A stretch of 64,000 nt of DNA from Candidatus Latescibacterota bacterium (GTDB lineage Bacteria > Latescibacterota > UBA2968 > GCA-2709665): assembly GCA_021295655.1 (NCBI GenBank), contig JAGWBX010000047.1:26779-90778 (forward strand). The letters are read 5' to 3'. Below the pieces are notes generated by a model. It was not told where the DNA came from and did no database searches. It saw only the letters and a program-made list of their open reading frames with translations. Within the stretch, counting starts at the first letter, position 1. Every line of letters starts with the position of its first letter. This document shows positions 21,599 to 62,478 of the stretch, piece after piece. Both the position numbers and the translations under genes were made by a program.

Positions 21599-22037
21599 TA
21601 TCCGTGCTGTCATCGCGATAACGAATCGTAATCCGGATGACAGCAAATGGCTGTCCTCATCACTCAGACGCCAATCGGTCTACAAAGGTATTTCCCGACC
21701 GGAGGACGACCAGAGCAGCGCGCGCTGATCCGTCCAGCGACGCGGATGGATGTGCTTGCGCAGGTATCAGGGCAGTGGATTGGGTGCATTCCGTGAGGGG
21801 ATTCGCGCTGTGCATATGGCAGGCCCCGTGCACAGCGGCGACTATTCCAAAGGCGGTAAGAAGGAAGAGGGAAGCCGGTAGAAGAAATCCCTGCCCGCTA
21901 TTTTATTCTTTCTTGCCTCCGGCACGAGGGAAATCTCTACCCTCTCCCGTCTTGCGTCTTCCCGGTTTTAAGGAACCCGCCGGAGGCAGGGAATCTGGGG
22001 AGACGTGGATGTTGAATCTGATTTTCAACTTGATTCA

Positions 22038-22069
22038 AGCTGAATGTTTAAAGCTGATGGCTGCTTTTT
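22038..22069. repeat. Degenerate TCAGCNN heptamer array plus T-run
   Basis: AGCTGAATGTTTAAAGCTGATGGCTGC followed by TTTTT on the + strand. Read on the - strand it is TCAGCnn, about 35 nt 3' of the PfkB kinase stop. Confidence 0.5.
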
Positions 22070-22104
22070 GCTGCGTTTCGACAGCCGGGGGGAGAGGACC
22101 GTAC

Positions 22105-27895: not shown

Positions 27896-28111
27896 TCAGA
27901 GCTTGGACTGTATGCGCACTTTCTTGATCTCATTGACGATCTCGTCCAATGTCATATCCTCGAAGATCCGCTCCCGCTCCTGGGTATAATCTCCGTAACC
28001 CATCGTAAATTGATTGATGAAACGTATCGTGTTCGCGATACCGATCTCTTTGGAAAGCACTTCAATGGCTTCCCTGGTAATTTCGCTTAATGCTTTTTCC
28101 TGAACTGTCAT
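27896..28111 (-). CDS. Small hypothetical protein (71 aa), divergent from the darG-like gene
   Basis: Clean ATG ORF in the low-GC island with helical, charged composition (…TLDEIVNEIKKV…). Family not recognised. Confidence 0.45.
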   Translation of the reverse strand: MTVQEKALSEITREAIEVLSKEIGIANTIRFINQFTMGYGDYTQERERIFEDMTLDEIVNEIKKVRIQSKL

Positions 28112-28289
28112 TTTTCATTCTCCGGTACGAGTTCGGCGGGAGAAACAGACTAAGCCCAGTAGTCTCCCGATGCATCTGCTTGACTAAGCAATCTTCAATC
28201 ACGGGAGAAGAAAGTGCGATGTTTTACAAGTCATTGATTTTGTTGGCTTTTTCTGACTCCGATGGTCTCTCATTTTGAGAATTTCTATT

Positions 28290-28318
28290 TTGACACATGA
28301 ACAAATGTATAGTATATT
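28290..28318 (+). promoter_or_regulatory. Consensus-like sigma70 promoter (TTGACA-N17-TATATT)
   Basis: TTGACA at 28290-28295, a 17-nt spacer, and TATATT at 28313-28318, upstream of the macrodomain gene. Confidence 0.55.
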
Positions 28319-28385
28319 AACAAGGTTAATCTATCTCAGTCAATTTAACTCTTTTTTGCCGCTGAATGGTCCCTGACAAAAGGAA

Positions 28386-28415
28386 TTGACCGGTTTTTGC
28401 ATTGAGCGCTATACT
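28386..28415 (+). promoter_or_regulatory. Second candidate promoter (TTGACC-N18-TATACT)
   Basis: TTGACC at 28386-28391 and TATACT at 28410-28415, about 45 nt upstream of the ATG at 28462 with the RBS AAAGGA. Confidence 0.45.
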
Positions 28416-28461
28416 ACATTCAGGTATCTACAAACGCACATTCCCGAAAGGACAAAGGATA

Positions 28462-29391
28462 ATGATTACCTATGTTGTAGGGGATTTGTTCGAATCCCCG
28501 GCTCGGGTTCTTGTGAATACGGTTAATACCGTAGGGGTCATGGGCAAAGGAATCGCGAAGAATTTCAAGCGGATATACCCAGAGATGTTTCGCGAATATC
28601 AAAAGCATTGTGAAACGAAACGGCTTACGGTGGGTAAGCTCTGGCTATATAAGACTTCAAACAAATGGATCCTTAATTTTCCAACCAAGACAACCTGGCG
28701 CAAAGCTTCGGAAATTCAATACATCAAAAGTGGCTTAAACACATTCGTAAGAGAATATGCGAAACGAGGTATAACTAGCATAGCCTTTCCACCGTTAGGA
28801 TGCGGTAACGGTGAATTAGACTGGGATCGACAGGTGCAACCACTGATGGAAAATTACCTGGGAAAGCTTCCTATTGACATTTTTATTCATCTGTACAGAC
28901 AGGATCCGCAAGTTCCTGAACACAGAGACATAGAAGACGTGGCGAGTTGGTTACGGTCCGATCTCGAATCTCTGGGTTATGTCGAGGTTTGGAAGGATTT
29001 GACTGAATTGATCGGTTCAGGGTTAGATTTACGAACATCATTTGATCACCAAAACTTCCACGTTAAGGTTATTTCTGAACTCGATGAGCAGGGAATCTGT
29101 TTTTATATGGACGACAAGAAAACCTTCATCCCGGAAGAGGAACTGGTCGAATTGTGGACTACTGTACGAAATTGCGGTTTTGCAATTCCCGCGATAATGC
29201 CCGCAGGATTAGAAATAATCTCGAATCAGTTAGTGGCACTTTTTTCGGAATTGCCTTATTGTCGGTCGGTATCAGCAAGTAATGACTATTTGGCATTGAG
29301 TTCAGGCCACAGCATTGGCCTTCAAATAGTACCTCAAGCAGCTCCTCCCAAGATTTTCGAGAAGTTCCCGTTTGAGTTTAAACCGGTATGA
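28462..29391 (+). CDS. darG: DarG-like macrodomain protein (putative ADP-ribosyl-DNA glycohydrolase antitoxin) with ~160-aa C-terminal domain
   Basis: The N-terminus MITYVVGDLFESPARVLVNTVNTVGVMGKGIAKNFKRIYPEMF...NFPTKTTWRKAS...IAFPPLGCGNGELDW closely follows the DarG-type macrodomain pattern as I recall it. The ATG at 28462 has an RBS; the ORF opens at a TTG at 28402. Confidence 0.85.
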   Translation: MITYVVGDLFESPARVLVNTVNTVGVMGKGIAKNFKRIYPEMFREYQKHCETKRLTVGKLWLYKTSNKWILNFPTKTTWRKASEIQYIKSGLNTFVREYAKRGITSIAFPPLGCGNGELDWDRQVQPLMENYLGKLPIDIFIHLYRQDPQVPEHRDIEDVASWLRSDLESLGYVEVWKDLTELIGSGLDLRTSFDHQNFHVKVISELDEQGICFYMDDKKTFIPEEELVELWTTVRNCGFAIPAIMPAGLEIISNQLVALFSELPYCRSVSASNDYLALSSGHSIGLQIVPQAAPPKIFEKFPFEFKPV

Positions 29392-30395
29392 CGAAGTCGA
29401 AAAAACGAGATGCAGAGAAAATCGTCGCTCATTTTCGGTCAATCAAGGAGCGGCCATGGTTACCGGAGTCACAACGTTGGTGGCCAGGCCACCTTTTTCA
29501 CTTTACGGATTTAACCAATGCTGTGAAGATTCTCGGCGACGGCAAATTGGTGTCCCGTTCCGAATTAGAACGAACTGGGGGATTAGTTACTGACATTGCA
29601 AGCCCGGAAGTCATATCAACTACAAGTTCAAGGTGGAAAGAGTATGTGCGTCTGTATTTTCGTCCGCGGACACCTACGCAGTACAGAAATGAGGGTTTCC
29701 GACCAGTTGGTCAGCGCGAAATGAACGCTCACTGCCCCGTACCCGTTAGTTTCATTTTTAATGCCGACGCAATTCTGACGAGCCAGCCAACGATGTTTAG
29801 CGATGGCAATCTGGCTGCTGGGGCAGAGCCAGGGAACACCGCTGAATACTTCCTGTCGCTCCCCTTTGATAAGATTTACCATGATCGTAGCTTGCCGAAA
29901 ATGGATGACACCGAGAAGCGTAATATCATTTTTCATCGACATGCTGAAGTTATATTTCCAAACGCTGTTGAACTTTCCAGCTTAAGATTGATCGGTTGTC
30001 GGTCCGAAGCCGAATTTCAGACACTCATTCATTTGCTTCCGATTGATGTGTATCTAAAATGGTCGAAGCGAATAGCGGTCAGCAGGAGATTTGGGCTGTT
30101 CTTTGGACGTTGGCCCTTTATTGAAAAAGTTAATCTAAGTATCTCGACGATCTCATTCGAGTTTAACCCATCGGTGTATGGTCGGTCAGGTCCATTTCAC
30201 GCGGAAATAGAACTAATCGAGACCAAGACCGAAACGATCCATAGATGGGAAGAGGATAACTTTTTTGCTAAGGACAGTTTGTCTTTCAATCTCTCAAATT
30301 TAAACAGCCCCGAAAATTATGTCGTGAAATTTTCGCTGGATGGACATTTGGCTTACGAAAACCGCTATTTGGATGATTCAGCGTTACCCTTTTAA
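29388..30395 (+). CDS. darT: DarT-like (DUF4433) ADP-ribosyltransferase toxin with ~125-aa C-terminal extension
   Basis: HLFHFTDLTNAVKILGDGKL, YVRLYFRPRTPTQY, MFSDGN and RHAEVIFP match, in order, the DarT motifs (Y/F-H-x-T, YVPFYFxPRSP, F-T/S-D-x-x, AE-x-L/I). The ATG overlaps the macrodomain stop as ATGA. Confidence 0.75.
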   Translation: MTKSKKRDAEKIVAHFRSIKERPWLPESQRWWPGHLFHFTDLTNAVKILGDGKLVSRSELERTGGLVTDIASPEVISTTSSRWKEYVRLYFRPRTPTQYRNEGFRPVGQREMNAHCPVPVSFIFNADAILTSQPTMFSDGNLAAGAEPGNTAEYFLSLPFDKIYHDRSLPKMDDTEKRNIIFHRHAEVIFPNAVELSSLRLIGCRSEAEFQTLIHLLPIDVYLKWSKRIAVSRRFGLFFGRWPFIEKVNLSISTISFEFNPSVYGRSGPFHAEIELIETKTETIHRWEEDNFFAKDSLSFNLSNLNSPENYVVKFSLDGHLAYENRYLDDSALPF

Positions 30396-30424
30396 CCCAT
30401 CTCATGTCACTCGATTTTGGTTTG

Positions 30425-30456
30425 ATGGCGGCCTGGACGGCCGCCATATTTATTTT
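30425..30456 (+). terminator. Rho-independent terminator after the darT-like gene
   Basis: 9-bp GC-rich stem ATGGCGGCC / GGCCGCCAT with loop TGGAC, followed by ATTTATTTT. Confidence 0.7.
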
Positions 30457-30726
30457 GGAGTCTCGTAAAGCTCTCGTACTGACAGACATGCAATACCGGC
30501 AACACTGACCTGAATTGCGAATTTTCGAATATTCCGGTTCGGGTTGGCAAGGAGCGAGAATAGATTCAGAGATCCGACCTGCGCTGATACCGTCACCCAC
30601 CGAAATCCGCTCACTTCGAACAATTGACGAATACGGCATTTTCGCCCCCGAAATGCAGGAATTGGACGAGAATGTGACCGAACGGAACCCATACTCGATT
30701 GACTGATGAATTGTCGGATCGGCCTC

Positions 30727-32073
30727 TTACTTGCGCGTTCGAAGCGCGTCGTCGACGGCGGAGGCCAGTTGATCGGCGTGCCGGATTTCCATAGGTAACG
30801 AGACGTTGCCGCCGAGTTTCCAGTAGATACCCCGGTTGAGGAGGGCGAAGAACAGCCACCGGTGAAAAAGCTGGTTGTCGCGAGCCGCTTCGCGGTAGTT
30901 TCGGGGACGCTCAGGTAGGAAATGGACGCGGAACAGGGAGCCGGCCGTTGTGACCCGCGCCTGAAGGGCGGCATCCCTGAAGACCTGTCCCAGCCGGCCG
31001 GCGAGGCGCCGTGTCAGTGAATCCAGCTTTTCATAGGCTTCTGCACTGAGCAGGCGGAGGGTGGTGAGGCCCGCGACGATGGCGATCGGGTTGGCGTTAT
31101 ACGTGCCGGAGTGAGGGATGTCCGGCGCGCCTCCGGCGGGGTTGTAGAGGTCCAGGACGTCGGCGCGGCCGCCGACAACGGCGCCGGGAGTGCCGCCGGC
31201 AACGACTTTGCCGAGACAGGTGAGGTCAGGACGCACGCCATACGTTTCCTGGGCGCCGCCACGGGAAATACGGAAGCTGACGATTTCGTCGAAGATGAGC
31301 AGGACGCCGGCGCGTTCCGTCATTTCACGGAGTCGCGAAAGAAAACCGTTCACCGGAAGGGTGAAGCCGGCTGCCGTTGAAAGCGGGTCGACAATTACCG
31401 CGGCCAGATCGTCCCGGTGCTCGTTGATTATTGCATCGCAGCTATCGGCGTCATTGAACGGGAGGACGACCACGTTTTCAATGGCCTGCGGGGTGAGGCC
31501 TCGCGAGGAAGGCACGGATTCGGGCCGATCGGGCGGTCCCAGATTCCCGTCCAGTGGAGGGACGTGGCTGACCATTACGTATTCGTCCATCCCGTGGTAT
31601 GCCCCTTCGAATTTGGCAATTCTGTTTCTGCCGGTGAAGGCGCGGGCGGCGCGGATGGCATTCAGGATGGCTTCGGTGCCCGAGCTGCAGAAGCGTACCG
31701 TTTCAAATGAACCGACGCGGTCCTTCAGAAATTCGGCCATTTCCACTTCGAGGCCCAGCGGACGCGAGAAGCCGGTGCCGTGGGCAATCCGCTCCTGGAG
31801 GGCGGCGACGACTTCGGGATGCGCGTGGCCCAGGATGAGGGCCGTGTTGTTGTTTACGAAATCAAGAAGGCGGTGGCCGTCCAGATCGATGAGATGGACG
31901 CCTGCGCCGCGGTCGGCGTATACCGGGTACGGGTCGAAGTGGACGCCGGTTCGCGTGTTTCCGCCGGGAAGAGACGCCTGGGCACGCCTGAACATCTCCC
32001 GTGAACGCGGGTGGTTGTCCATGTATTCTGCAATCTGCCTATCCAGGGATGCCCGCAGGTTTCCGGGTTCCAT
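30727..32073 (-). CDS. Class-III (GSA-aminomutase-like) PLP-dependent aminotransferase
   Basis: GGNTRTGVHFDPYPVY..., CSSGTEA, FDEIVSFR and GKVVAGGTPGA(V)GG are typical of the glutamate-1-semialdehyde aminomutase-like family. The ATG at 32073 is preferred over the ORF opening at 32184. Confidence 0.85.
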   Translation of the reverse strand: MEPGNLRASLDRQIAEYMDNHPRSREMFRRAQASLPGGNTRTGVHFDPYPVYADRGAGVHLIDLDGHRLLDFVNNNTALILGHAHPEVVAALQERIAHGTGFSRPLGLEVEMAEFLKDRVGSFETVRFCSSGTEAILNAIRAARAFTGRNRIAKFEGAYHGMDEYVMVSHVPPLDGNLGPPDRPESVPSSRGLTPQAIENVVVLPFNDADSCDAIINEHRDDLAAVIVDPLSTAAGFTLPVNGFLSRLREMTERAGVLLIFDEIVSFRISRGGAQETYGVRPDLTCLGKVVAGGTPGAVVGGRADVLDLYNPAGGAPDIPHSGTYNANPIAIVAGLTTLRLLSAEAYEKLDSLTRRLAGRLGQVFRDAALQARVTTAGSLFRVHFLPERPRNYREAARDNQLFHRWLFFALLNRGIYWKLGGNVSLPMEIRHADQLASAVDDALRTRK

Positions 32074-33652: not shown

Positions 33653-33803
33653 GATAAAGGCGATTTGACGGCTGATTACCAGGATACACCAGGTCCACTG
33701 GACGTGAGCTGAAAAAACGTCCTTTTTTAACGACCGTTTCGCCCCGTTTCAGGGATCTTCGTTGCGTTGCCGAGTTGCTGTTGTTTATCGAATTGGGGGT
33801 AAT
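33653..33803 (+). repeat. ~150-nt conserved leader-like element, copy 1 (upstream of msrA)
   Basis: Near-identical to 62333-62478. Contains the hairpin GGACGT-N11-ACGTCC followed by a T-run. Ends 19 nt before the msrA ATG. Confidence 0.7.
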
Positions 33804-37487: not shown

Positions 37488-37560
37488 TGGACTTTTGCTC
37501 CTGGCAGAAGCAAGGAAAGGATGAAGATGAATGAAGGGTCTTGCGACGAGTAAGTCCGAT

Positions 37561-37785
37561 TATTTCTCGTAAATAACTTATTTTTATATTATTTACGCCC
37601 TTTTTCTTTCTCGCCAAAGAAAAAGGGCCAAAAAGAACGGCACCTCTCGGCGCGGGGCCGGTTTTTCCGTGAACCACCTCAGAGGCGCAAGTTGAAATCG
37701 GGTGTCCTGTCGCCATACCAGCCCATCCAAAATGATGTCGCTGGACGGAATAGCACGGAAAAACCCCCCGTTCAACCACCGTGCG
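37561..37785 (+). repeat. ~225-nt structured-looking intergenic element, copy A
   Basis: Collinear and indel-free with 48008-48232. It contains a 12-bp hairpin (37598-37609 / 37616-37627) and a 12-bp long-range helix GGTTTTTCCGTG (37660-37671) / CACGGAAAAACC (37754-37765). Confidence 0.7.
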
Positions 37786-37982
37786 GGTGGGGAAGAATCC
37801 CGTAAGGACCCCCGCGCGGTCTGGCGTGTTCCCGCTGTTTGGTGCTTGCCTGGTTCTGCTCCCCCTCTCCCCTCGGGAGAGGGGGAGAGGTCCCCGTATC
37901 GAGGTCCAAGAAAAACGTACATGGCCCATGTGTCAAGCGGCGATGAAGCAGGCGCGCCGGGAGAATTGAGAAAGAGACAGAA

Positions 37983-39221
37983 ATGGAACGGATCAACCTG
38001 GCATTGGTGGGGTGCGGCGGAATGGGAACGCGACACCTGTATGGGTTGCGGACGCTCGCCCGGACGCCGTTCAACAGGATTGACTTGAAGGCGTTGTGCG
38101 ACATCAATCCGGAGAATGCCAGGATGGCGGCGGCGGAGGCGGGAAAGCTGCTGGGGGTGGAGCCCGCGATCTTTACGGACCTGGAGGCAATGGCCGCTGC
38201 GATGCCGGAACTGAATGCCGTCGACGTGGTGACCGATCCCGCGGTACACCACGAGGTTTCCTGCAAGGCACTGGATCTCGGGCTGCACGTGATGGTGGAA
38301 AAACCGATGGCGATTACCGTTCGCGCCTGTCTGATGATGATCCAGGCGGCCCGGCGGAACGGACGCGTGTTATCCGTGGCGGAGAACTACCGGCGGGACC
38401 CCTCGGCCCGACTGGCGCACCACATGGTAACCAGCGGCGCAATCGGGACGCCGTACATGGGTCTGTTTCACGACGTAAGCGAGGGGGACAGAATCTTCAT
38501 TACCCCATGGCGCCACCTCAAGAATCGTGGCGGGCCCCTGGTGGACATGGGGGTGCACTTTGCCGATCTGATCCGCTATCAGTTGGGGGAAATCCACGAG
38601 GTGTACGGCGACGTGAGGCTGGTGGAGCCGGTGCGGCGAAAGGCCGATACGATGTGGAGACCCTATGAGTATTACCAAAAGCAATACGAAGACATGGCGC
38701 CTGTTGTCACGGCAGACGCGGAGGATTCCTCGGTGGCGGTGTTTCGCATGGTTGGCGGCGCCACGGTGAGCTGGGTGGTTGGATTGGGAGGACACGGGGG
38801 TTGCAGTACTCAGTTGATTCTGGGTACGGAGGGGTGCATCGAGGGCTATGGGACCCGCGGCGGCCGGGTTCGGATGCGCCGGGGGCGCGGTGATTTCCAG
38901 GAACAGGAAGAAATGCTGGCACAGGCCGAGGGATTCGAACAGGATGCCGTGTCCGCCCATTTCTTCCCGACCGGGCTGACGGCGGCGGATCGCGAGGTTG
39001 ACTGGAAGCTTCTCGCCATGGAGTATTGCGAGTTTGGCGAGGCCATCGCCGAGGGGAGGGAAGTGGAGGTGGACGGAAAGGAGGGGATGAAGGACGTGGC
39101 GGCAGTCTACGCGGTATTCGAGTCGGCCATGACAGGTGGGGCGGTACGGATGGCCGAGGTAGAAAGCGGCGAAATTGACGCCTATCAGGCGGAGATAGAC
39201 GCGGCGCTGGGTATTTTGTGA
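37983..39221 (+). CDS. Gfo/Idh/MocA-family oxidoreductase
   Basis: N-terminal Rossmann motif INLALVGCGGMGTRH and an EKP motif (VMVEKPMA). Confidence 0.85.
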   Translation: MERINLALVGCGGMGTRHLYGLRTLARTPFNRIDLKALCDINPENARMAAAEAGKLLGVEPAIFTDLEAMAAAMPELNAVDVVTDPAVHHEVSCKALDLGLHVMVEKPMAITVRACLMMIQAARRNGRVLSVAENYRRDPSARLAHHMVTSGAIGTPYMGLFHDVSEGDRIFITPWRHLKNRGGPLVDMGVHFADLIRYQLGEIHEVYGDVRLVEPVRRKADTMWRPYEYYQKQYEDMAPVVTADAEDSSVAVFRMVGGATVSWVVGLGGHGGCSTQLILGTEGCIEGYGTRGGRVRMRRGRGDFQEQEEMLAQAEGFEQDAVSAHFFPTGLTAADREVDWKLLAMEYCEFGEAIAEGREVEVDGKEGMKDVAAVYAVFESAMTGGAVRMAEVESGEIDAYQAEIDAALGIL

Positions 39222-43264: not shown

Positions 43265-43368
43265 TAGCTGACGGCTTACGCCTGATAGCTGATAGCTCTG
43301 TCCGAGGGGGGCCGGGGGGAGAGGTCCCGCTTTTGGCTGACAGCTGACGACTGATAGCCGATCGCTGG
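43265..43368. repeat. Two TCAGCNN heptamer arrays separated by a GGGGAGAGGTCCC motif
   Basis: On the + strand: AGCTGAC GGCTTAC GCCTGAT AGCTGAT AGCTCTG (43265-43300) and GGCTGAC AGCTGAC GACTGAT AGCCGAT CGCTGG (43335-43368) plus a T-run. They sit immediately 3' of the - strand gene ending at 43374. Confidence 0.7.
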
Positions 43369-43373
43369 TTTTT

Positions 43374-44309
43374 TTATTCCTTTTCGACTTTGTCCAGTTT
43401 ACGTTCGTAGGAAAGGTCGATTTCAGCACGGATGTTGTCCACGGGTTTCCTGTGGTCTACGCGCCTTACTTCCGGACGTGTAAGGTTCGACCGCACTTTG
43501 TGGGAGATGACAATGCCGCGGGTGGCGTCGATAACCCAGGTGCCTTTTCCTTCTCCGGTCCCGTCGACGACCAGCTGAAGCGAGCCAATATTGACGGGCG
43601 CTCTGAAACGGACTTTTCTGTCTTCCTCGAATGTGACGATTTTATTTCCCTTCTTGGTGGCGATATTCTTCACCTTGTATGTGCTCTTGAGCTCCACAAT
43701 GGCTTCGTCATCGATCATCATAACCGGCGTTTTGAAATTCACTTCGCCGGACCAGGTGTCGCCGGGGCCAACCGGGTTTTCAGGAAGGACCGGTTTGAGT
43801 TCGGGTGTCCAGATCTGCCAAAGGTCCGTCAGGACGTCGGGTCGGTTGAGGTCTCGCGCGGAATTGTTGCTTGTTTGACGCTGAACCGCGCCGTCTGACG
43901 AGAGAAACCATGTGAATTCCCAGTCGTCCAACTGCTCCAGCGTATAGGGAAACTGGTCGTGCGTAAGGCGTTTGTTCTCGAAGAAAAATCCGTTGACGGC
44001 CTTGTTCAGGGTTGCGACGAGGCGCGTGGCCTGTGCGTTGGATTCGCCGTCCGTGCCGGCGTGGATGACTTCCCGGCTTCGCCATTCGCCTCTGATCTCG
44101 CCCGAGGTAAATCCCCGTTGCGTGCGTCCGGGCACGATCACTTCCGCGCGGTCGCTCTTGAAGGCGAATGAATATTTATGCTTATATTTGATGGTGCGTC
44201 CGTCCGGATAGGTGACCTGAAGGGATACTTTCTCCCTGGCATGGATGGAAGCGCCTATCGACAGAAGAACGGCGAGACACAGGAACGAGAACGTGCGTGC
44301 AGACTTCAT
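43374..44309 (-). CDS. Hypothetical secreted protein
   Basis: The ATG at 44309 follows GGGAGG. Signal peptide MKSARTFSFLCLAVLLSIGASIHA. The ORF opens further upstream at 44483, but that part overlaps the next gene's 3' end. Confidence 0.6.
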   Translation of the reverse strand: MKSARTFSFLCLAVLLSIGASIHAREKVSLQVTYPDGRTIKYKHKYSFAFKSDRAEVIVPGRTQRGFTSGEIRGEWRSREVIHAGTDGESNAQATRLVATLNKAVNGFFFENKRLTHDQFPYTLEQLDDWEFTWFLSSDGAVQRQTSNNSARDLNRPDVLTDLWQIWTPELKPVLPENPVGPGDTWSGEVNFKTPVMMIDDEAIVELKSTYKVKNIATKKGNKIVTFEEDRKVRFRAPVNIGSLQLVVDGTGEGKGTWVIDATRGIVISHKVRSNLTRPEVRRVDHRKPVDNIRAEIDLSYERKLDKVEKE

Positions 44310-45710: not shown

Positions 45711-47885
45711 TTGAGCCGGAGACAAGCCCGAAAATTAAATCGGCAACGCCACGCCGGCGTCCGGAAACCCGAGACCGTCGCAGCCGCGTTCCTGGGTCTC
45801 CACGTCCTTCTCGCCTTCTGGCGCCCCAATCCTTTCTGGGGCGCGGACCTTCTTTATTATTATCCGGATTCTCTGCGGATTGTATTCATCCTGCTTGCGA
45901 TACTCGTTCTTGTTCCCCGCGTGCGGGCCCGGGTTCACCCCCTTTTTGCCGGCCTTTCCGCTGCACTCCGGGGCAACGGCGTGCGCCCCTGGATTGTTCG
46001 TATTCTGCTTATTCTCGTTGCTCTTGCCGGATTCATTGCGCTGCAGTCGGCGCGACACCTCCTGGGCGACGGGTACCTCTATTTGCGGGAACTGGACGCC
46101 GGCATCACACAGCGCGTCGACCGGGCGCCGCTTACCTTCGCTCTGATTCGATTCGTGCATGAAGCAGGCGCGTCGCTCTGGCAAACCGCAGAAAACACGT
46201 ACCGCGTCTACAGCTACGCCTCCGGACTTCTCTTTCTGCTGCTGGCCCTGGCCACGGCCGGCGCCCTTGGAAGGACCGACCGTGAAAAAACCGTGGTGTT
46301 CGCCTTCCTGGTCACCGCCGGATACGTGCAACTCTTTTTCGGATACGTGGAGAACTATGCCTTCTATATGCCGGCCACTCTGCTCTACCTGCTGGCGGGT
46401 CTTCGGAGTCTGGAAAACCGGGCGCCCCTCTACGTGCCCGCGCTGGTGCTGGGACTGCTCGTTCCGTTTCATTTTCTGTTTGTTCTCTTTGCGCCATCCC
46501 TGATCATCCTTGGCTACTACCGGTATCGGCGCCAGGAGACGTCGATGCCTAAATGGAAGAATGTCGCGGACAAACTGGCCGCGTTTTGCACCGCGCCGCT
46601 GGCCGCCGTGCTCGTCTTCTGGATCGCCGGTTTCGACTTCGGCGCCTTTCTGGAACGGACAGGCGGAAAACACCACATTCTCCCGCTGTTTTCCGAACCG
46701 GGCTTTCATGTGCCCTACCGCATCGTCTCCCTCTCCCATCTGCTCGATTTTGTGAATCTGCAGGTCCTCTCGGCCCCCGCAGCGGTGATGGCGGTGTTTC
46801 TCTTTGGCGGAAAAGACTATCGTCACCATCCGTTTCTGCTTTCTGCCGCCGCAGTCCCGCTCTTCTTCACGTTTCTTGCAAACCCTGAAATCGGCGCCTT
46901 CAGAGACTGGGACATCCTGGCGCTTCCGGCCCTGCCGCTCACACTCTGGGCCGCCTCGGCGCTGCTGGAACGGCGTCGTCAGGATGAACGGGACCACCGG
47001 AGCGTCTCTGTCATTTGCGCGGCTGCCGCCCTGCACACCATGCTGTGGATTGGCCTGAACGCCAACCCCGCTGCCGCGGAAGCGCGTTATGTGCACCTCA
47101 TGGGCAGGCTGAACGGGCATGCCGCATCCTACGGATGGGAAACACTTGGAACGTATTACCGGCTGCGTGGGAAAACAGTCCCCGCGCTGAACGCCTATAA
47201 ACGGGCGCTCGATGCGAATCCGCAAAATCCCCGCCACTGGTTGTCTGTCGGCATCATCTATTGCGACCTTGGCCGGCCGGAGCGCGGGATCGACCACCTC
47301 AGGAGAGCAACGGAGATCCAGCCCGACCTCGCTGAGGCGCATATCAATCTGGGTGCTGCGTACCTGGGGACGGGTCGGCACGGTGTTGCGATAGACCACC
47401 TCAGGAAAGCCACTGAACTTCAGCCGGAAACAGCGCTCACGTATGTCAACCTCGGCGCCGCCTACAACGAGACGGACAGGCACAGCGAAGCGCTGGACGT
47501 TCTCAATAAAGCCCTTGAAATACAACCGGAGCACCCGGGCGCGCACGTCAATCTCGGCGCCTCCTACCATGGCCTGGGCCGGTACGAGGAGGCCGTTGAG
47601 CACCTGAAGACCGCGCTTGAGCTGCAACCCGCCCTGGCCAATGCGCAGACGTACCTGAACATTGGCGGGACCTACCACAGTATGGGCCGGTTTGAAGAGG
47701 CGATTCCGTACCTTCAGAAAGCCATACAGATCAATCCCCGGTTCACAAATGCCTATTTCAACCTGGGCCTGGCCTACGGCGCGCTGAATCGCATGGAGGA
47801 AGCACGAGCCAACCTTCGAAAGGTGCTGGAACTGAATCCCGACGATCCCCAGGCGCCCGTTATCAGGCAATTGCTAAGAGAGTAA
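45711..47885 (+). CDS. Polytopic membrane protein with C-terminal TPR repeats
   Basis: About 430 aa of TM helices are followed by at least seven 34-aa TPR units (…A.INLGAAY...G.....AI..L.KA.E.QP…). TTG start, uncertain. Confidence 0.75.
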   Translation: MSRRQARKLNRQRHAGVRKPETVAAAFLGLHVLLAFWRPNPFWGADLLYYYPDSLRIVFILLAILVLVPRVRARVHPLFAGLSAALRGNGVRPWIVRILLILVALAGFIALQSARHLLGDGYLYLRELDAGITQRVDRAPLTFALIRFVHEAGASLWQTAENTYRVYSYASGLLFLLLALATAGALGRTDREKTVVFAFLVTAGYVQLFFGYVENYAFYMPATLLYLLAGLRSLENRAPLYVPALVLGLLVPFHFLFVLFAPSLIILGYYRYRRQETSMPKWKNVADKLAAFCTAPLAAVLVFWIAGFDFGAFLERTGGKHHILPLFSEPGFHVPYRIVSLSHLLDFVNLQVLSAPAAVMAVFLFGGKDYRHHPFLLSAAAVPLFFTFLANPEIGAFRDWDILALPALPLTLWAASALLERRRQDERDHRSVSVICAAAALHTMLWIGLNANPAAAEARYVHLMGRLNGHAASYGWETLGTYYRLRGKTVPALNAYKRALDANPQNPRHWLSVGIIYCDLGRPERGIDHLRRATEIQPDLAEAHINLGAAYLGTGRHGVAIDHLRKATELQPETALTYVNLGAAYNETDRHSEALDVLNKALEIQPEHPGAHVNLGASYHGLGRYEEAVEHLKTALELQPALANAQTYLNIGGTYHSMGRFEEAIPYLQKAIQINPRFTNAYFNLGLAYGALNRMEEARANLRKVLELNPDDPQAPVIRQLLRE

Positions 47886-47918
47886 GCTGTCAGCCTTCAG
47901 CAATCAGCGGTCAGCTAA
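47886..47918. repeat. TCAGCNN heptamer array directly after the TPR-protein stop
   Basis: GCTGTCA GCCTTCA GCAATCA GCGGTCA GCT on the + strand, beginning 1 nt after the TAA. Confidence 0.65.
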
Positions 47919-48007: not shown

Positions 48008-48232
48008 ATATTTCGATAAACCATTTATTTTTATATTATTTACGCCATTTTTCTTGTCCGCCGAAGAAAAAGGGCCAAAACTAACGGCGCCGCTGGGCGC
48101 GGGGCCGGTTTTTCCGTGAACTACCTCAGTGGCGCAAAAGGGAATCGGTTGTCCTGTCACCGGAACAGGCCATCCCTGGCAACGTTGCCGGACGGAATGG
48201 CACGGAAAAACCCCCCTCTCTACCACCGTACG
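48008..48232 (+). repeat. ~225-nt structured-looking intergenic element, copy B
   Basis: Same order and spacing of conserved blocks as copy A, with the long-range helix at 48107-48118 / 48201-48212. Confidence 0.7.
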
Positions 48233-48426
48233 CTTGACCGTACTGCGCGACGTTTAATGCATTTGCAATATTGACGATGAAGGAAGGGGGAACCGGGATC
48301 CTATTTCGTGACCCGTTTTTCCCTTTCCTTCAGGAAAGGGTGCCTGCCGCCAGGCAGGCGGGATAGGTTCTGCGAGGGAGCCGGGTGGAGGGGTTGCTCT
48401 TGACGTTGCCTTTCGCCGTTGCTCTT

Positions 48427-48459
48427 AGCTGACGGCTGAGGGCTGATAGCTGCTTTTTT
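48427..48459. repeat. Heptamer array (AGCTGAC GGCTGAG GGCTGAT AGCTGC) plus T-run
   Basis: Opposite orientation to the array at 47886. Sits just upstream of the lpxH-like gene. Confidence 0.65.
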
Positions 48460-48465
48460 CCAAGG

Positions 48466-49291
48466 GTGACGACATTGGAAAAAATCTATTTCATATCTGA
48501 CGTGCACATAGGATCGCCGGGAATGGGAGACGCAACCCGGGAGCGGGAAGACGTCCTGATCGACTTCCTGAAGGCCATCCGTCGCGATGCGCGGGCGCTA
48601 TACATCGTCGGCGATCTCTCGCACGACGATCCCTTCGAGCGGCGCACGGGTCCTGTTCGAACTGTACAACCTGGTTGAGTCCGGTGTTCGCGTGATATAC
48701 CTGCCGGGGAATCACGACCTGTGGCCGGGCGAATACTTCTCGGGCCAACTCGGCGTTGAACTGCCGGGCGGGCCGATCACGGTCAACCATCAGGGACTGA
48801 GGATCCACATTGCCCACGGAGACGAAATCCGGACCGACTGGCGATTCCGCCTCAGCCGCGGCATTCTGAAAAACCGGTTCTGCGTTGGCCTGTTCCGCCT
48901 GCTTCACCCGGACCTCGGAGCCATCCTCGCCAGGTATACCTCCCGGCTGTCCGAGTACCGAATCCGGAGGCGGGGTTCCGGTAACCGGGATATACTCTAC
49001 AGGGCCGCCAGAGAAAAAATCGCCCATGGCGCCGACATCGTAATCCACGGCCACTACCACTTCACACTCCACGCCCGTGTGGGGGGTTCGCCCGGCGATC
49101 AGGCTGTCACCAGGATGCGTACCGGTGACCGTGCGGATGCCGGATCTGAACGCACCGGTGAACTGGTCGTCCTGGGCGACTGGATTCAGCAATGCACTTA
49201 TGCTGTACTGGAAAACGGCGGAATTCGGCTGGATAAATGGAATGAAGGCACATTGTCCGAGCCGGTGGCCCGGATGGAAGAAGACGGATAG
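48466..49291 (+). pseudogene. lpxH: LpxH-like UDP-2,3-diacylglucosamine diphosphatase, split by a frameshift
   Basis: Frame 1 encodes IYFISDVHIG...ALYIVGDL and stops at 48678. A second frame continues with RVLFELYNLVESGVRVIYLPGNHDLW...IAHGDEI...IHGHYH. A single indel near 48630-48655 would join them. Confidence 0.7.
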
Positions 49292-54719: not shown

Positions 54720-54758
54720 AGCTGACAGCTGTCGGCTGATAACTGATGGCTGCTTTTT
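54720..54758. repeat. Heptamer array (AGCTGAC AGCTGTC GGCTGAT AACTGAT GGCTGC) plus T-run
   Basis: Immediately 3' of the ilvD stop. It reads TCAGCnn in the ilvD sense direction. Confidence 0.7.
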
Positions 54759-54770
54759 CCTCTCCCGCTT

Positions 54771-56577: not shown

Positions 56578-56605
56578 TCAGCCATCAGCGGTCAGCTTTC
56601 AGCTC
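56578..56605. repeat. Heptamer array (TCAGCCA TCAGCGG TCAGCTT TCAGCTC)
   Basis: Upstream of ilvD, inverted relative to the array at 54720. Confidence 0.65.
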
Positions 56606-61026: not shown

Positions 61027-61099
61027 CCCGGCGGGCGATCGTCAAGCCCTTGAGATTCCTTCAACGTTCCACGCCGAGTAGCCCGGAAAATCCGCCCGC

Positions 61100-61128
61100 T
61101 TGACAGGGAAAGCCTATCGGGCTATATT
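61100..61128 (+). promoter_or_regulatory. Sigma70-type promoter (TTGACA-N17-TATATT), module copy 1
   Basis: TTGACA at 61100-61105 and TATATT at 61123-61128, embedded in the inverted repeat TAGCCCG...CGGGCTA. About 95 nt upstream of the small ORF at 61225. Confidence 0.6.
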
Positions 61129-61224
61129 TCGAACGGTTGGGCGACATCATCTGCCGCAACCTTGAATTTGAAAACGTATATTTCCTCTCCCGTTCAGTAT
61201 TGGTGCTGTTGAAAAGGATACAAG

Positions 61225-61437: not shown

Positions 61438-61607
61438 CCGTTCCCCCAGGCTTTGGGTGATTCCAGACCGGCCATCGATTGCCTCTTCAAGTTTTCCACC
61501 ATACGAATATTCACCGTCCGTATTCCCGCACGCTTTCAGACTGAAGTACCGGGACCGTTTACCATCTGTGTCTTTGCCCGCTGTATAGCCCGGAAACGCC
61601 GCCCCGC

Positions 61608-61636
61608 TTGACAGGGACAGGCTGCCGGGCTATATT
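61608..61636 (+). promoter_or_regulatory. Sigma70-type promoter (TTGACA-N17-TATATT), module copy 2, driving ssrA
   Basis: TTGACA at 61608-61613 and TATATT at 61631-61636, within the 10-nt inverted repeat TATAGCCCGG / CCGGGCTATA. About 48 nt upstream of the mature tmRNA 5' end. Confidence 0.65.
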
Positions 61637-61684
61637 TTCACCGGCTCGGGCGGCCAGGCGGCCCGGGACAGATCAAAACCGTGT

Positions 61685-62044
61685 GGGGGCGACCTGGATT
61701 CGACGGGGGTGGAGAGGCGATGGCTGCGTGTCGAGGTCCCATGTCCTCGTTAAACTGTGGGAACACGATATAATTGCGGACGATACGTACGCAATGGCTG
61801 CGTAACTAAAACGCAGTCCGTTCTGACGGGCTTCGCCTGCAGGGCCCGACCGGAGCGCCGACTTATGCGGGCTGGCTCGTGGACCTCCGTTCGAGGGTCC
61901 GTGAGCGAGAGCTTATCGAACTGGCGCGTTGGCAACCCCGTTTACCGGGGCGCCCGCGCGTGAGATTCAAAAGGTAAACTACACACGTAGACGCTGTCGT
62001 TGATTTGCTTTCGGACGCGGGTTCGATTCCCGCCGCCTCCACCA
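61685..62044 (+). ncRNA. ssrA: tmRNA (SsrA)
   Basis: The 5' end GGGGGCGACCTGGATTCGACGGGG and the 3' end GGACGCGGGTTCGATTCCCGCCGCCTCCACCA form the tRNA-like domain. The internal tag ORF GCG GAC GAT ACG TAC GCA ATG GCT GCG TAA encodes ADDTYAMAA. Confidence 0.95.
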
Positions 62045-62332: not shown

Positions 62333-62478
62333 GATAAAGGCGATTTAACTTCTGGTTACCAGGATACACCAGGTCACCGGACGTGAACTGAAAAAACGTC
62401 CTTTTGGACGACCGTTACGCCCCGCTTCAGGGGTTTTCCTCGCGTCGCCGAGTTGCTGTTTTTCGAATTGGGGTTAAT
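62333..62478 (+). repeat. ~150-nt conserved leader-like element, copy 2 (upstream of octaheme cytochrome gene)
   Basis: Collinear with 33653-33803 (GATAAAGGCGATTT...TTACCAGGATACACCAGGTC...GGACGTGA.CTGAAAAAACGTCCTTTT...GCCGAGTTGCTGTT...CGAATTGGGG.TAAT). Confidence 0.7.

Follow-up and report, generated by a model that had tools for sequence, protein, structure and literature searches.

A possible new family of structured mosaic repeats in the intergenic regions of Latescibacterota-type genomes

The general properties of intergenic mosaic repeats in bacteria have been reviewed for BIME/REP sequences of E. coli, RIME of Rhizobium, ERIC/IRU, BOX of pneumococcus and Correia/CREE of Neisseria (PMC3184786). 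Here we describe an element that occurs twice, as copies A and B, in a 64,000-nt stretch (the window) of contig JAGWBX010000047.1 from a Candidatus Latescibacterota bacterium. Like BIME, RIME, ERIC, BOX and Correia repeats, it is multi-copy, intergenic, modular, hairpin-forming and free of open reading frames (ORFs), lies in either orientation, is present or absent at corresponding sites and contains nested repeats. Unlike these repeats, its unit is larger (225 to >450 nt), its fold combines a loop-to-downstream pairing with a long-range helix around a variable domain, and compensatory changes preserve this fold in both of two diverged sister families. It further differs from REP sequences in having no GTAG-type palindrome of 20-40 nt, a length of at least 225 nt and AU-rich main hairpins, and from Correia elements in having no uniform terminal inverted repeats. 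The element resembles MITEs (miniature inverted-repeat transposable elements) and palindromic elements derived from the IS200/IS605 family in being non-autonomous, short, multi-copy and hairpin-rich. Unlike MITEs, it has no autonomous parent or transposase that we could find, its ends are not uniform, and its 12-bp inverted repeat is internal to the mobile unit. The intricacy of its fold, and the persistence of that fold in evolution, set the element apart from the mosaic and MITE-like repeats, its closest known analogues. We give about an even chance to the reading that it is a previously undescribed, dispersed and modular non-coding mosaic, or MITE-like structured repeat, of Latescibacterota-type genomes.

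Copies A (37561-37785) and B (48008-48232) were identical at 179 of 225 positions (79.6%) in a pairwise alignment with zero indels, confirming the gap-free alignment described in an earlier, sequence-only reading of the window. Long identical blocks are interleaved with diverged ones, and the three longest blocks common to both copies occur nowhere else in the window (0 expected from shuffles). The differences fall evenly on the three codon positions (15/16/15), and no reading frame stays open across the family; the sole frame open in both window copies has stops in half of 30 relatives. The element is therefore non-coding, as the sequence-only reading had thought likelier from the alternation of blocks. 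Coding sequence was also ruled out by the lengths of the relatives (174-179 nt), which are not all multiples of three, and a short ORF opposite the U2 module, spotted by eye, is not conserved. The shared unit is wider than 225 nt: homology to other family members reaches upstream to at least ~37500 in copy A and ~47990 in copy B. Copy B is housed in a composite of ~560 nt that is bounded by 28-nt inverted arrays (47891-47918 and 48425-48452).

The two copies belong to a large family, which we call family A. A search of bacterial and archaeal assemblies, one genome per species, for the exact 19-mer GGCCGGTTTTTCCGTGAAC gave 52 loci, of which 42 have the whole element and ten are chance matches. 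Nearly all of the 42 loci are in Candidatus Latescibacterota metagenome-assembled genomes (MAGs), and a few are on contigs labelled Gemmatimonadota or 'uncultured bacterium'. At least 16 copies are present in one 5.87-Mb chromosome, OZ241917.1. Scanning metagenomes for the hairpin plus spacer gave ten further full copies with different long-helix sequences, and a covariance model from 51 copies recovered additional complete and truncated ones. The element is thus short, non-coding and present in many copies per genome, as MITEs are. The Gfo/Idh/MocA protein encoded beside copy A is 85-89% identical to Latescibacterota MAG proteins and the gene order is conserved; the genes of the window therefore group with the organisms that carry the element.

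These sequences correspond to no RNA family described so far. A search of Rfam 15 at gathering score, covering the window together with 18 loci from Latescibacterota and 20 from metagenomes, gave only tmRNA and tRNA, and in the earlier reading the element had not been recognized as SRP RNA, RNase P, 6S or a common riboswitch. Permissive Rfam searches of both copies stayed at chance level, the best being Phe_leader with 21.6 bits (threshold 55) and no E-value falling below 0.29. The core sequences appeared in no paper in a full-text search, and a keyword search gave nothing specific to Latescibacterota. A phage origin was rejected, as scans of viral contigs yielded only chance matches in coding sequence. 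The sequence-only reading had proposed a candidate novel structured RNA and a search for further copies in related genomes. Further copies were indeed found, and the candidate remains non-coding, unmatched in Rfam and conserved in its 5' hairpin and long-range helix. A discrete two-copy RNA gene was ruled out by the many dispersed copies, presence and absence at orthologous sites, truncations and nested insertions.

Compensatory changes support most of the fold. Pairs were counted in 30 full-length copies with a model comprising a 5' hairpin (HP1, 13 bp), a pairing of the HP1 loop with sequence beyond a spacer (4 bp, a pseudoknot), a small hairpin (hp2', 4 bp) and a long helix (2+12 bp). Together these features are 97.4% paired, and eight pairs changed on both sides. 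Their covariation score was 0.157 against 0.071 in shuffles, with 0/500 shuffles as high and scores of at most 0.05 when partners were slid by 1-3 columns, in a test that responds alike to RNA and to single-stranded DNA. Pair 2-32 of HP1 occurs 17 times as U-A and 13 times as C-G, and pair 13-21 covaries as well (GC 16, AU 10, UA 2), while the central ten pairs show no variation. Where the HP1 loop ends in CGCC the downstream partner is GGCG (31/31 copies, two with a mismatch elsewhere in the pairing), and where it ends in CGCG the partner is CGCG (11/11); within this pseudoknot, pair 20-44 is CG in 19 copies and GC in 10. The variants of hp2' all pair (CCGC/GCGG, CCGU/ACGG, CCCC/GGGG and CCCU/AGGG), with pairs 50-61 and 51-60 covarying. 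Compensatory changes affect three positions of the long helix: three loci (L081, L089, L137) carry GCUUUUCCGCG/CGCGGAAAAGC, and L105 carries ..CCACG/CGUGG... Covariation thus shows that selection keeps a folded single strand comprising these four features.

The 82-nt interior behaves differently from these outer features. Its candidate helices are 63-81% paired with covariation no higher than in shuffles, and a three-way junction proposed there by eye was dropped on these grounds. A first register of the GC hairpin, GCGCC/GGCGC, was 78% paired without covariation and was replaced by the covarying 4-bp register. The sequence-only reading had named mutation without helix-preserving change, as in a decaying MITE or duplication, as evidence that would count against a structured RNA. 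The interior and the genomic behaviour of the element do fit such decay, but the outer helices do not.

Most of the structure described in that earlier reading can be recognized in both window copies. The 12-bp helix GGTTTTTCCGTG/CACGGAAAAACC lies at 37660-37671/37754-37765 in copy A and at 48107-48118/48201-48212 in copy B, encloses exactly 82 nt in each and continues as GGGG/CCCC past a CC bulge, as had been stated. This helix and the 5' hairpin were claimed to be conserved, and the changes in other copies bear this out. HP1 had been described as a perfect 12 bp in copy A with mismatches in copy B; it has 13 bp, and copy B carries two mismatches. A 3' hairpin at a shared position exists in both copies (CCACC..GGTGG at 37776-37790 in copy A, GTACG..CGTAC in copy B), but in the wider family no hairpin is kept there. 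Of the covarying features, the loop-to-post-spacer pairing and hp2' had not been noted before. The spacer of copy B, CAAAACTAAC, differs from that of copy A at two positions, and the pseudoknot of copy A contains one C·A mismatch.

The model also gave weak matches to the other strand at 270-500 nt downstream of many copies, and these led to a second multi-copy family (family B). In the sense orientation of family B, its features follow one another as they do in family A. A hairpin GGUUCCUUUUG/CAAAAGGAACC carries a GCGAC loop that pairs with GUCGC beyond an A-rich spacer. It is followed by a small hairpin, CCGC/GCGG or its variant CCAC/GUGG, and then by GGGGCC. The closing helix is GC-rich and unrelated in sequence to the long helix of family A, but encloses the same domain, and unpaired blocks recur as in family A (GAAUC, CCUCA, GCCCUG and GCUGGACGGA). 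As the order of features is the same and the helix sequences differ, the architecture has been kept while the helix sequences diverged. In the family-B copy of the window the 5' hairpin is split by a third repeat type of ~140 nt (~21827-21965, GGTAAGAAGGAAGAGGG..CTACCCTCTCCCGTCTTGCG), which also stands in place of the family-A hairpin in L016 and L052.

We compared orthologous intergenic regions for gain and loss of the element. Copy A lies between an AP_endonuc_2-type gene and a Gfo/Idh/MocA gene, and four syntenic relatives (85-89% protein identity) have no element at this site, which is occupied by other repeats. In the orthologous locus L005, copy B has kept its place, while the remainder of the intergenic region is unalignable. 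The interiors of orthologous copies from different genomes are often 50-60% identical, whereas copies at unrelated loci reach 94-98%, and interior types track the genome, not the locus. This pattern indicates replacement or gene conversion. A 455-nt family-B unit showed sharp-ended presence and absence between the orthologous loci L016 and L049. At this sole clean pair of a filled and an empty site there is no target-site duplication (junctions GGTCTGCGGC and CGAATTC). Elements of the IS200/IS605 family likewise leave no target-site duplication, and the clean indel resembles them in this respect. The 455-nt unit has no inverted ends, while the composite of copy B has its 28-nt inverted heptad arrays. 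We rejected the long helix as a terminal inverted repeat of the element, since the mobile unit set by the indel extends far past it. Some copies contain nested repeats: CCTGCC..GGCAGG hairpins are inserted in hp2 of many OZ241917.1 copies. The 3' modules of copy B also trail family-A copies in L129 and L152.

Two other kinds of repeat were seen in these intergenic regions. The GCTGANN heptad pattern is enriched in the window, with 19 matches against 3.1 expected. Arrays of 3-5 heptads occur at 22038-22072, 43267-43376, 47883-47918 (-), 48425-48461, 54721-54761 and 56578-56603 (-). They sit at intergenic edges, usually closing with GCTGC and a T-run, and in other genomes they end family-B units. 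GTAG-type palindromes (GTAGGGGCGACCGGCCGGTCGCCCCTAC, GTAGGGGCAACCCTTGTGGTTGCCC) form a separate repeat family that resembles classical REP sequences. They were seen in L181, L184 and L185, which are orthologues of the copy A intergenic region, and also in L003, L021 and L038.

The genes around the element do not form a pattern. Flank orientations, scored for 41 copies with a crude gene caller, were ++ in 15, -- in 15, divergent (-+) in nine and convergent (+-) in two. No flanking protein family recurs (39 singletons, none dominant), and the nearest genes are metabolic or otherwise unrelated, among them those for Gfo/Idh/MocA, LpxH-like and enolase-superfamily proteins and an AAA ATPase. The neighbours of other copies, which the sequence-only reading had thought worth checking, thus share no gene family, and their orientation is not fixed. 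One alternative reading is a cis-regulatory leader, either a riboswitch-like element or an attenuator, in which the closed domain would respond to a ligand or protein and control the downstream gene by way of a hairpin and U-tract. The genes that follow the two window copies do share their orientation (one for a Gfo/Idh/MocA oxidoreductase, at 37983, the other LpxH-like, at ~48478), a GC hairpin lies beside a U-tract, and the domain closed by the long helix has conserved junction sequences. However, the downstream gene is equally often on the opposite strand, the flanking genes are functionally unrelated, and the operon downstream of copy A has no element in four relatives. The + strand U-tract moreover lies 8 nt from the hairpin and is itself a strand of the long helix, and the interior, which would do the sensing, is the least conserved part. 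Orientation and gene content largely refute a leader, which we consider very improbable. A terminator role was also rejected, as convergent gene pairs are depleted (2/41) rather than enriched.

Stand-alone genes for small RNAs (sRNAs) would be expected to show just such neighbour-independent orientation. Multi-member sRNA families have been reported in other bacteria. The copies could be paralogous genes for structured sRNAs of ~200-450 nt, each transcribed independently and acting in trans or bound to protein and spread by duplication and gene conversion instead of transposition. The retention of a covariation-backed fold across two diverged families agrees with this, as does the persistence of the element at an orthologous site of two species amid unalignable intergenic DNA. 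Conserved unpaired blocks (GAAC, CCUCAG and GGACGGAAU) suggest specific recognition. Promoter evidence falls on both sides. U1-type copies, and only these, have a conserved -35/-10-like block upstream (TTGCAA or TTGACT, 16 nt, TAACTT or TAAATC), but no promoter can be recognized in most copies, which are of the U2, U3 and family-B types, and scanning the + strand revealed none of the sigma-70 type in either window copy. Such promoters are nevertheless in use in the organism, for a canonical TTGACA-17-TATATT stands upstream of its transfer-messenger RNA (tmRNA) gene. The + strand fold is not followed by a canonical terminator. Paralogous sRNA genes also fit poorly with the at least 16 copies in one genome, along with truncated and interrupted ones, with the loss of copy A from four close relatives and with an interior that evolves free of structural constraint. 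On balance we regard sRNA genes as a possible but rather unlikely explanation.

The element is probably transcribed, and two hints favour the opposite (-) strand as the transcribed one. On this strand a GC hairpin is followed by CGUUCUUUUUGG, which is terminator-like, and a hairpin plus U-tract of this kind exists on the - strand only. A terminator-like site lies at 48433-48452, among the 3' modules of copy B. A weak - strand promoter-like match, TTGGCG-18-AATAAT at 37617-37588, is directed away from the element. Counts of G·U against A·C pairs are biased by a search pattern that fixed one helix arm, and the unconstrained helices, with 3 C·A and 0 G·U cells, offer too few to tell the strands apart. 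Separately, the window contains two 47-nt promoter-like copies with TTGACA-17-TATATT (61095-61141 and 61603-61649), the second just upstream of the tmRNA gene (61685-62044; tag peptide ADDTYAMAA).

HEARO/omega-RNAs and several classes of ribozyme were likewise conspicuous for many copies with a complex, conserved and pseudoknotted fold at a time when their function had yet to be discovered. Like HEARO/IscB omega-RNA, the element is multi-copy, complex, pseudoknotted and tied to mobile DNA. A further reading is that of a mobile and structured RNA that has an activity of its own. It could be a new ribozyme that cleaves itself, a non-autonomous retroelement, or an RNA that guides or scaffolds a nuclease or recombinase encoded at another place, in the manner of stand-alone copies of omega-RNA or bridge RNA. 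Such mobility would suit interiors that are alike across the loci of one genome but of different types at orthologous loci, as well as presence and absence without target duplication. However, no ribozyme, HEARO or other Rfam 15 family matched, and we could identify no conserved candidate for a catalytic core or guide segment. Unlike HEARO/IscB omega-RNA, the element has no nuclease ORF next to it; nor does a nuclease, reverse transcriptase or recombinase gene adjoin any of ~50 copies, as would be expected of IscB/TnpB omega-RNA or IS110 bridge RNA. We therefore judge an RNA of this kind improbable.

One part of the - strand could form a triple helix. Known triple-helix RNAs include the ENE with the A-rich tract of MALAT1 and PAN and the H-type pseudoknots of telomerase RNA and the SAM-II riboswitch. 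On the - strand, the spacer of the element reads GUUCUUUUUG, a parallel image of the purine arm AAGAAAAA, which is the HP1 3' arm. Spacer and HP1 5' arm together make up a pyrimidine mirror repeat, UUCUUUUU-GGUCC-UUUUUCUU. The spacer GUUCUUUUUGG would lie as a third strand in the HP1 major groove, parallel to the purine arm, making up seven triples of the U·A-U kind and one C+·G-C triple. The 5' end of the spacer is joined to the loop-pairing strand, which would give the geometry of a triple-helix H-type pseudoknot. Such a helix would account for the invariance of the central ten HP1 pairs and the spacer beside covarying flanking pairs. As in ENE and triplex pseudoknots, there are two U-rich tracts (one C) and one A-rich tract (one G) of the right polarity, a pseudoknot helix anchors the candidate third strand at the loop end, and the three strands are invariant where flanking pairs covary. 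Unlike in the ENE, the U-rich tracts are adjacent, as a mirror repeat, instead of flanking an internal loop, the triple helix is predicted from sequence, and the setting is a dispersed bacterial repeat. Family B has a shorter mirror, UUUU-GGUUCC-UUUU with AAAA, so that eight positions are triple-compatible in family A and four in family B. Equally, these mirror sequences could adopt H-DNA or ordinary hairpins with a different pairing.

The hairpin plus spacer also occurs without the core of the element, in ~50 metagenome loci that are probably from Firmicutes; one such contig encodes a class-3 fructose-bisphosphatase-like protein. An upstream pyrimidine tract mirroring the arm over at least 8 nt was present in 119/294 hairpins with a purine 3' arm, compared with 0-4 in controls. 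In the Firmicutes-type loci the hairpin plus spacer is part of a 175-nt repeat, where a long hairpin at the centre comes next and then a second hairpin. This second hairpin, which lies outside the search selection, has the same mirror relation on one strand only, with five variants in which the third, Watson-Crick and purine strands change jointly. The 175-nt repeat was seen in L059, L061, L067, L076, L079, L108, L112, L113 (as three tandem units), L116, L128, L130, L147, L148, L156, L160, L168 and L170, on contigs probably from Firmicutes, and it has no Rfam match. In other metagenome contigs, at L064, L068, L069, L114, L119, L125, L131 and L163, an HP1-type hairpin stands directly 3' of a stop codon. 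It is followed there by a conserved stretch, ..AAGTTCGAGACTG..GCTGYTGTTCC..GCCCGGTRACGG.., apparently a separate conserved non-coding element, for which four loci gave no Rfam match.

Taken to its furthest, the triple-helix idea makes the element a mobile structured RNA belonging to a new class. The - strand transcript of this RNA would end in an ENE-like triple-helix pseudoknot for 3'-end protection or recognition, shared with the Firmicutes-type repeats by three-way covariation, and its closed domain would have an activity of its own or bind a protein in trans for spread. We consider this proposal unlikely. The mirror-repeat hairpin recurs, with joint changes of the three strands, in a second kind of repeat on other metagenome contigs, probably of Firmicutes, and makes a concrete, testable candidate for a bacterial triple helix, in RNA or as H-DNA.

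Under the reading of the element as a mosaic or MITE-like repeat, it would travel at the DNA level, spreading or being exchanged from one intergenic region to another in whole composite units a few hundred bases long, which the observed gains and losses show in part. Since it encodes no protein, it would depend on functions supplied in trans. The conserved fold consists of a 13-bp U5/A5 HP1, its loop pairing past an 11-nt spacer, hp2' and a 12+2-bp helix around a fast-evolving 82-nt interior. It may form in read-through transcripts or in single-stranded DNA during movement, and could act as a transcript-end or stability structure or as a recognition structure for propagation. Several points weigh against this reading. 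No transposase, recombinase or RAYT partner was found, whole genomes not having been scanned. The single clean insertion or deletion comes from family B and not family A, and the ends of the composites are not uniform, with 28-nt inverted arrays in copy B and none in the L016 unit. The fold is elaborate and kept across two diverged families, beyond what most selfish repeats show, which argues for a function at the RNA level. As for the triple helix, it is a matter of sequence compatibility, the HP1 spacer was in the metagenome search pattern, and the three putative strands are invariant within Latescibacterota. If the mosaic-repeat reading is true, the uncultured phylum Latescibacterota has rich and dynamic intergenic repeats that fill whole intergenic regions, and annotation and RNA-motif searches must tell them from genuine regulatory RNAs. 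The family would then be a well-sampled, selfish-looking repeat with a compensated fold in two sister families, raising the question of what recognizes that fold. The parts of the copies in the window are collected in Table 1.

Table 1. Coordinates of the element copies and their parts in the window.
Feature	Position	Strand	Basis or remark
Copy A, upstream module of U1 type; 3' end is AT-rich TTATTTTTATATTATTTAC	37500..37596	+	Unrelated loci with U1-type copies have it too
Copy A, HP1, 13-bp hairpin GCCCTTTTTCTTT/AAAGAAAAAGGGC, loop CTCGCC	37597..37628 (arms 37597-37609/37616-37628)	+	Perfect pairing; 99% paired in 30 members
Copy A, A-rich spacer CAAAAAGAAC, then GGCA, partner of the HP1 loop (pseudoknot 3' strand)	37629..37642	+	Covariation in family
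Copy A, small hairpin hp2' (CCTC TCGGC GCGG)	37643..37655	+	Family variants all pair; one U·C mismatch in copy A
Copy A, long-range helix, 5' strand (GG, CC bulge, GGTTTTTCCGTG)	37656..37671	+	Partner is 37754-37767
Copy A, 82-nt interior; conserved blocks GAAC, CCTCAG, GYCCTG, GGACGGAAT; no conserved helices	37672..37753	+	
Copy A, long-range helix, 3' strand (CACGGAAAAACC, then CCCC)	37754..37769	+	95-97% paired
Copy A, variable 3' modules, including hairpin CTCCCCCTCTCCC/GGGAGAGGGGGAG at 37859-37887	37770..37905	+	Absent with the element in four relatives
Copy B, parts as in copy A at an offset of +10447	48008..48232	+	
Copy B, HP1	48044-48075	+	
Copy B, spacer and pseudoknot partner	48076-48089	+	
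Copy B, hp2'	48090-48102	+	
Copy B, long helix	48103-48118 with 48201-48216	+	
Copy B composite, left inverted GCTGANN heptad array	47891..47918	-	28 nt, 82% complementary to 48425-48452
Copy B, 3' modules: hairpin with nested CCTGCC..GGCAGG repeat, right GCTGANN array (48425-48452), T-run	48233..48461	+	
Family-B copy	21640..22075, core 21721-21807	-	Family-A covariance model, 30.3 bits, E=2.5e-7 (local search); aligns with 14 other family-B copies

Other features were observed elsewhere in the window. A non-coding stretch of ~130 nt is duplicated at 33653-33785 and 62333-62463 with 79-94% identity. One copy is upstream of an msrA-like ORF and the other ~290 nt downstream of the tmRNA gene. 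The region 28001-31000, which includes an ORF at 29388-30395, has a GC content of 0.42-0.50 compared with ~0.58-0.62 elsewhere and may have been horizontally acquired. Downstream of copy B, the gene for the LpxH-like metallophosphoesterase (48466-49291) is split over two frames, 48466-48678 and 48587-49291, which suggests a frameshift or a sequencing error.

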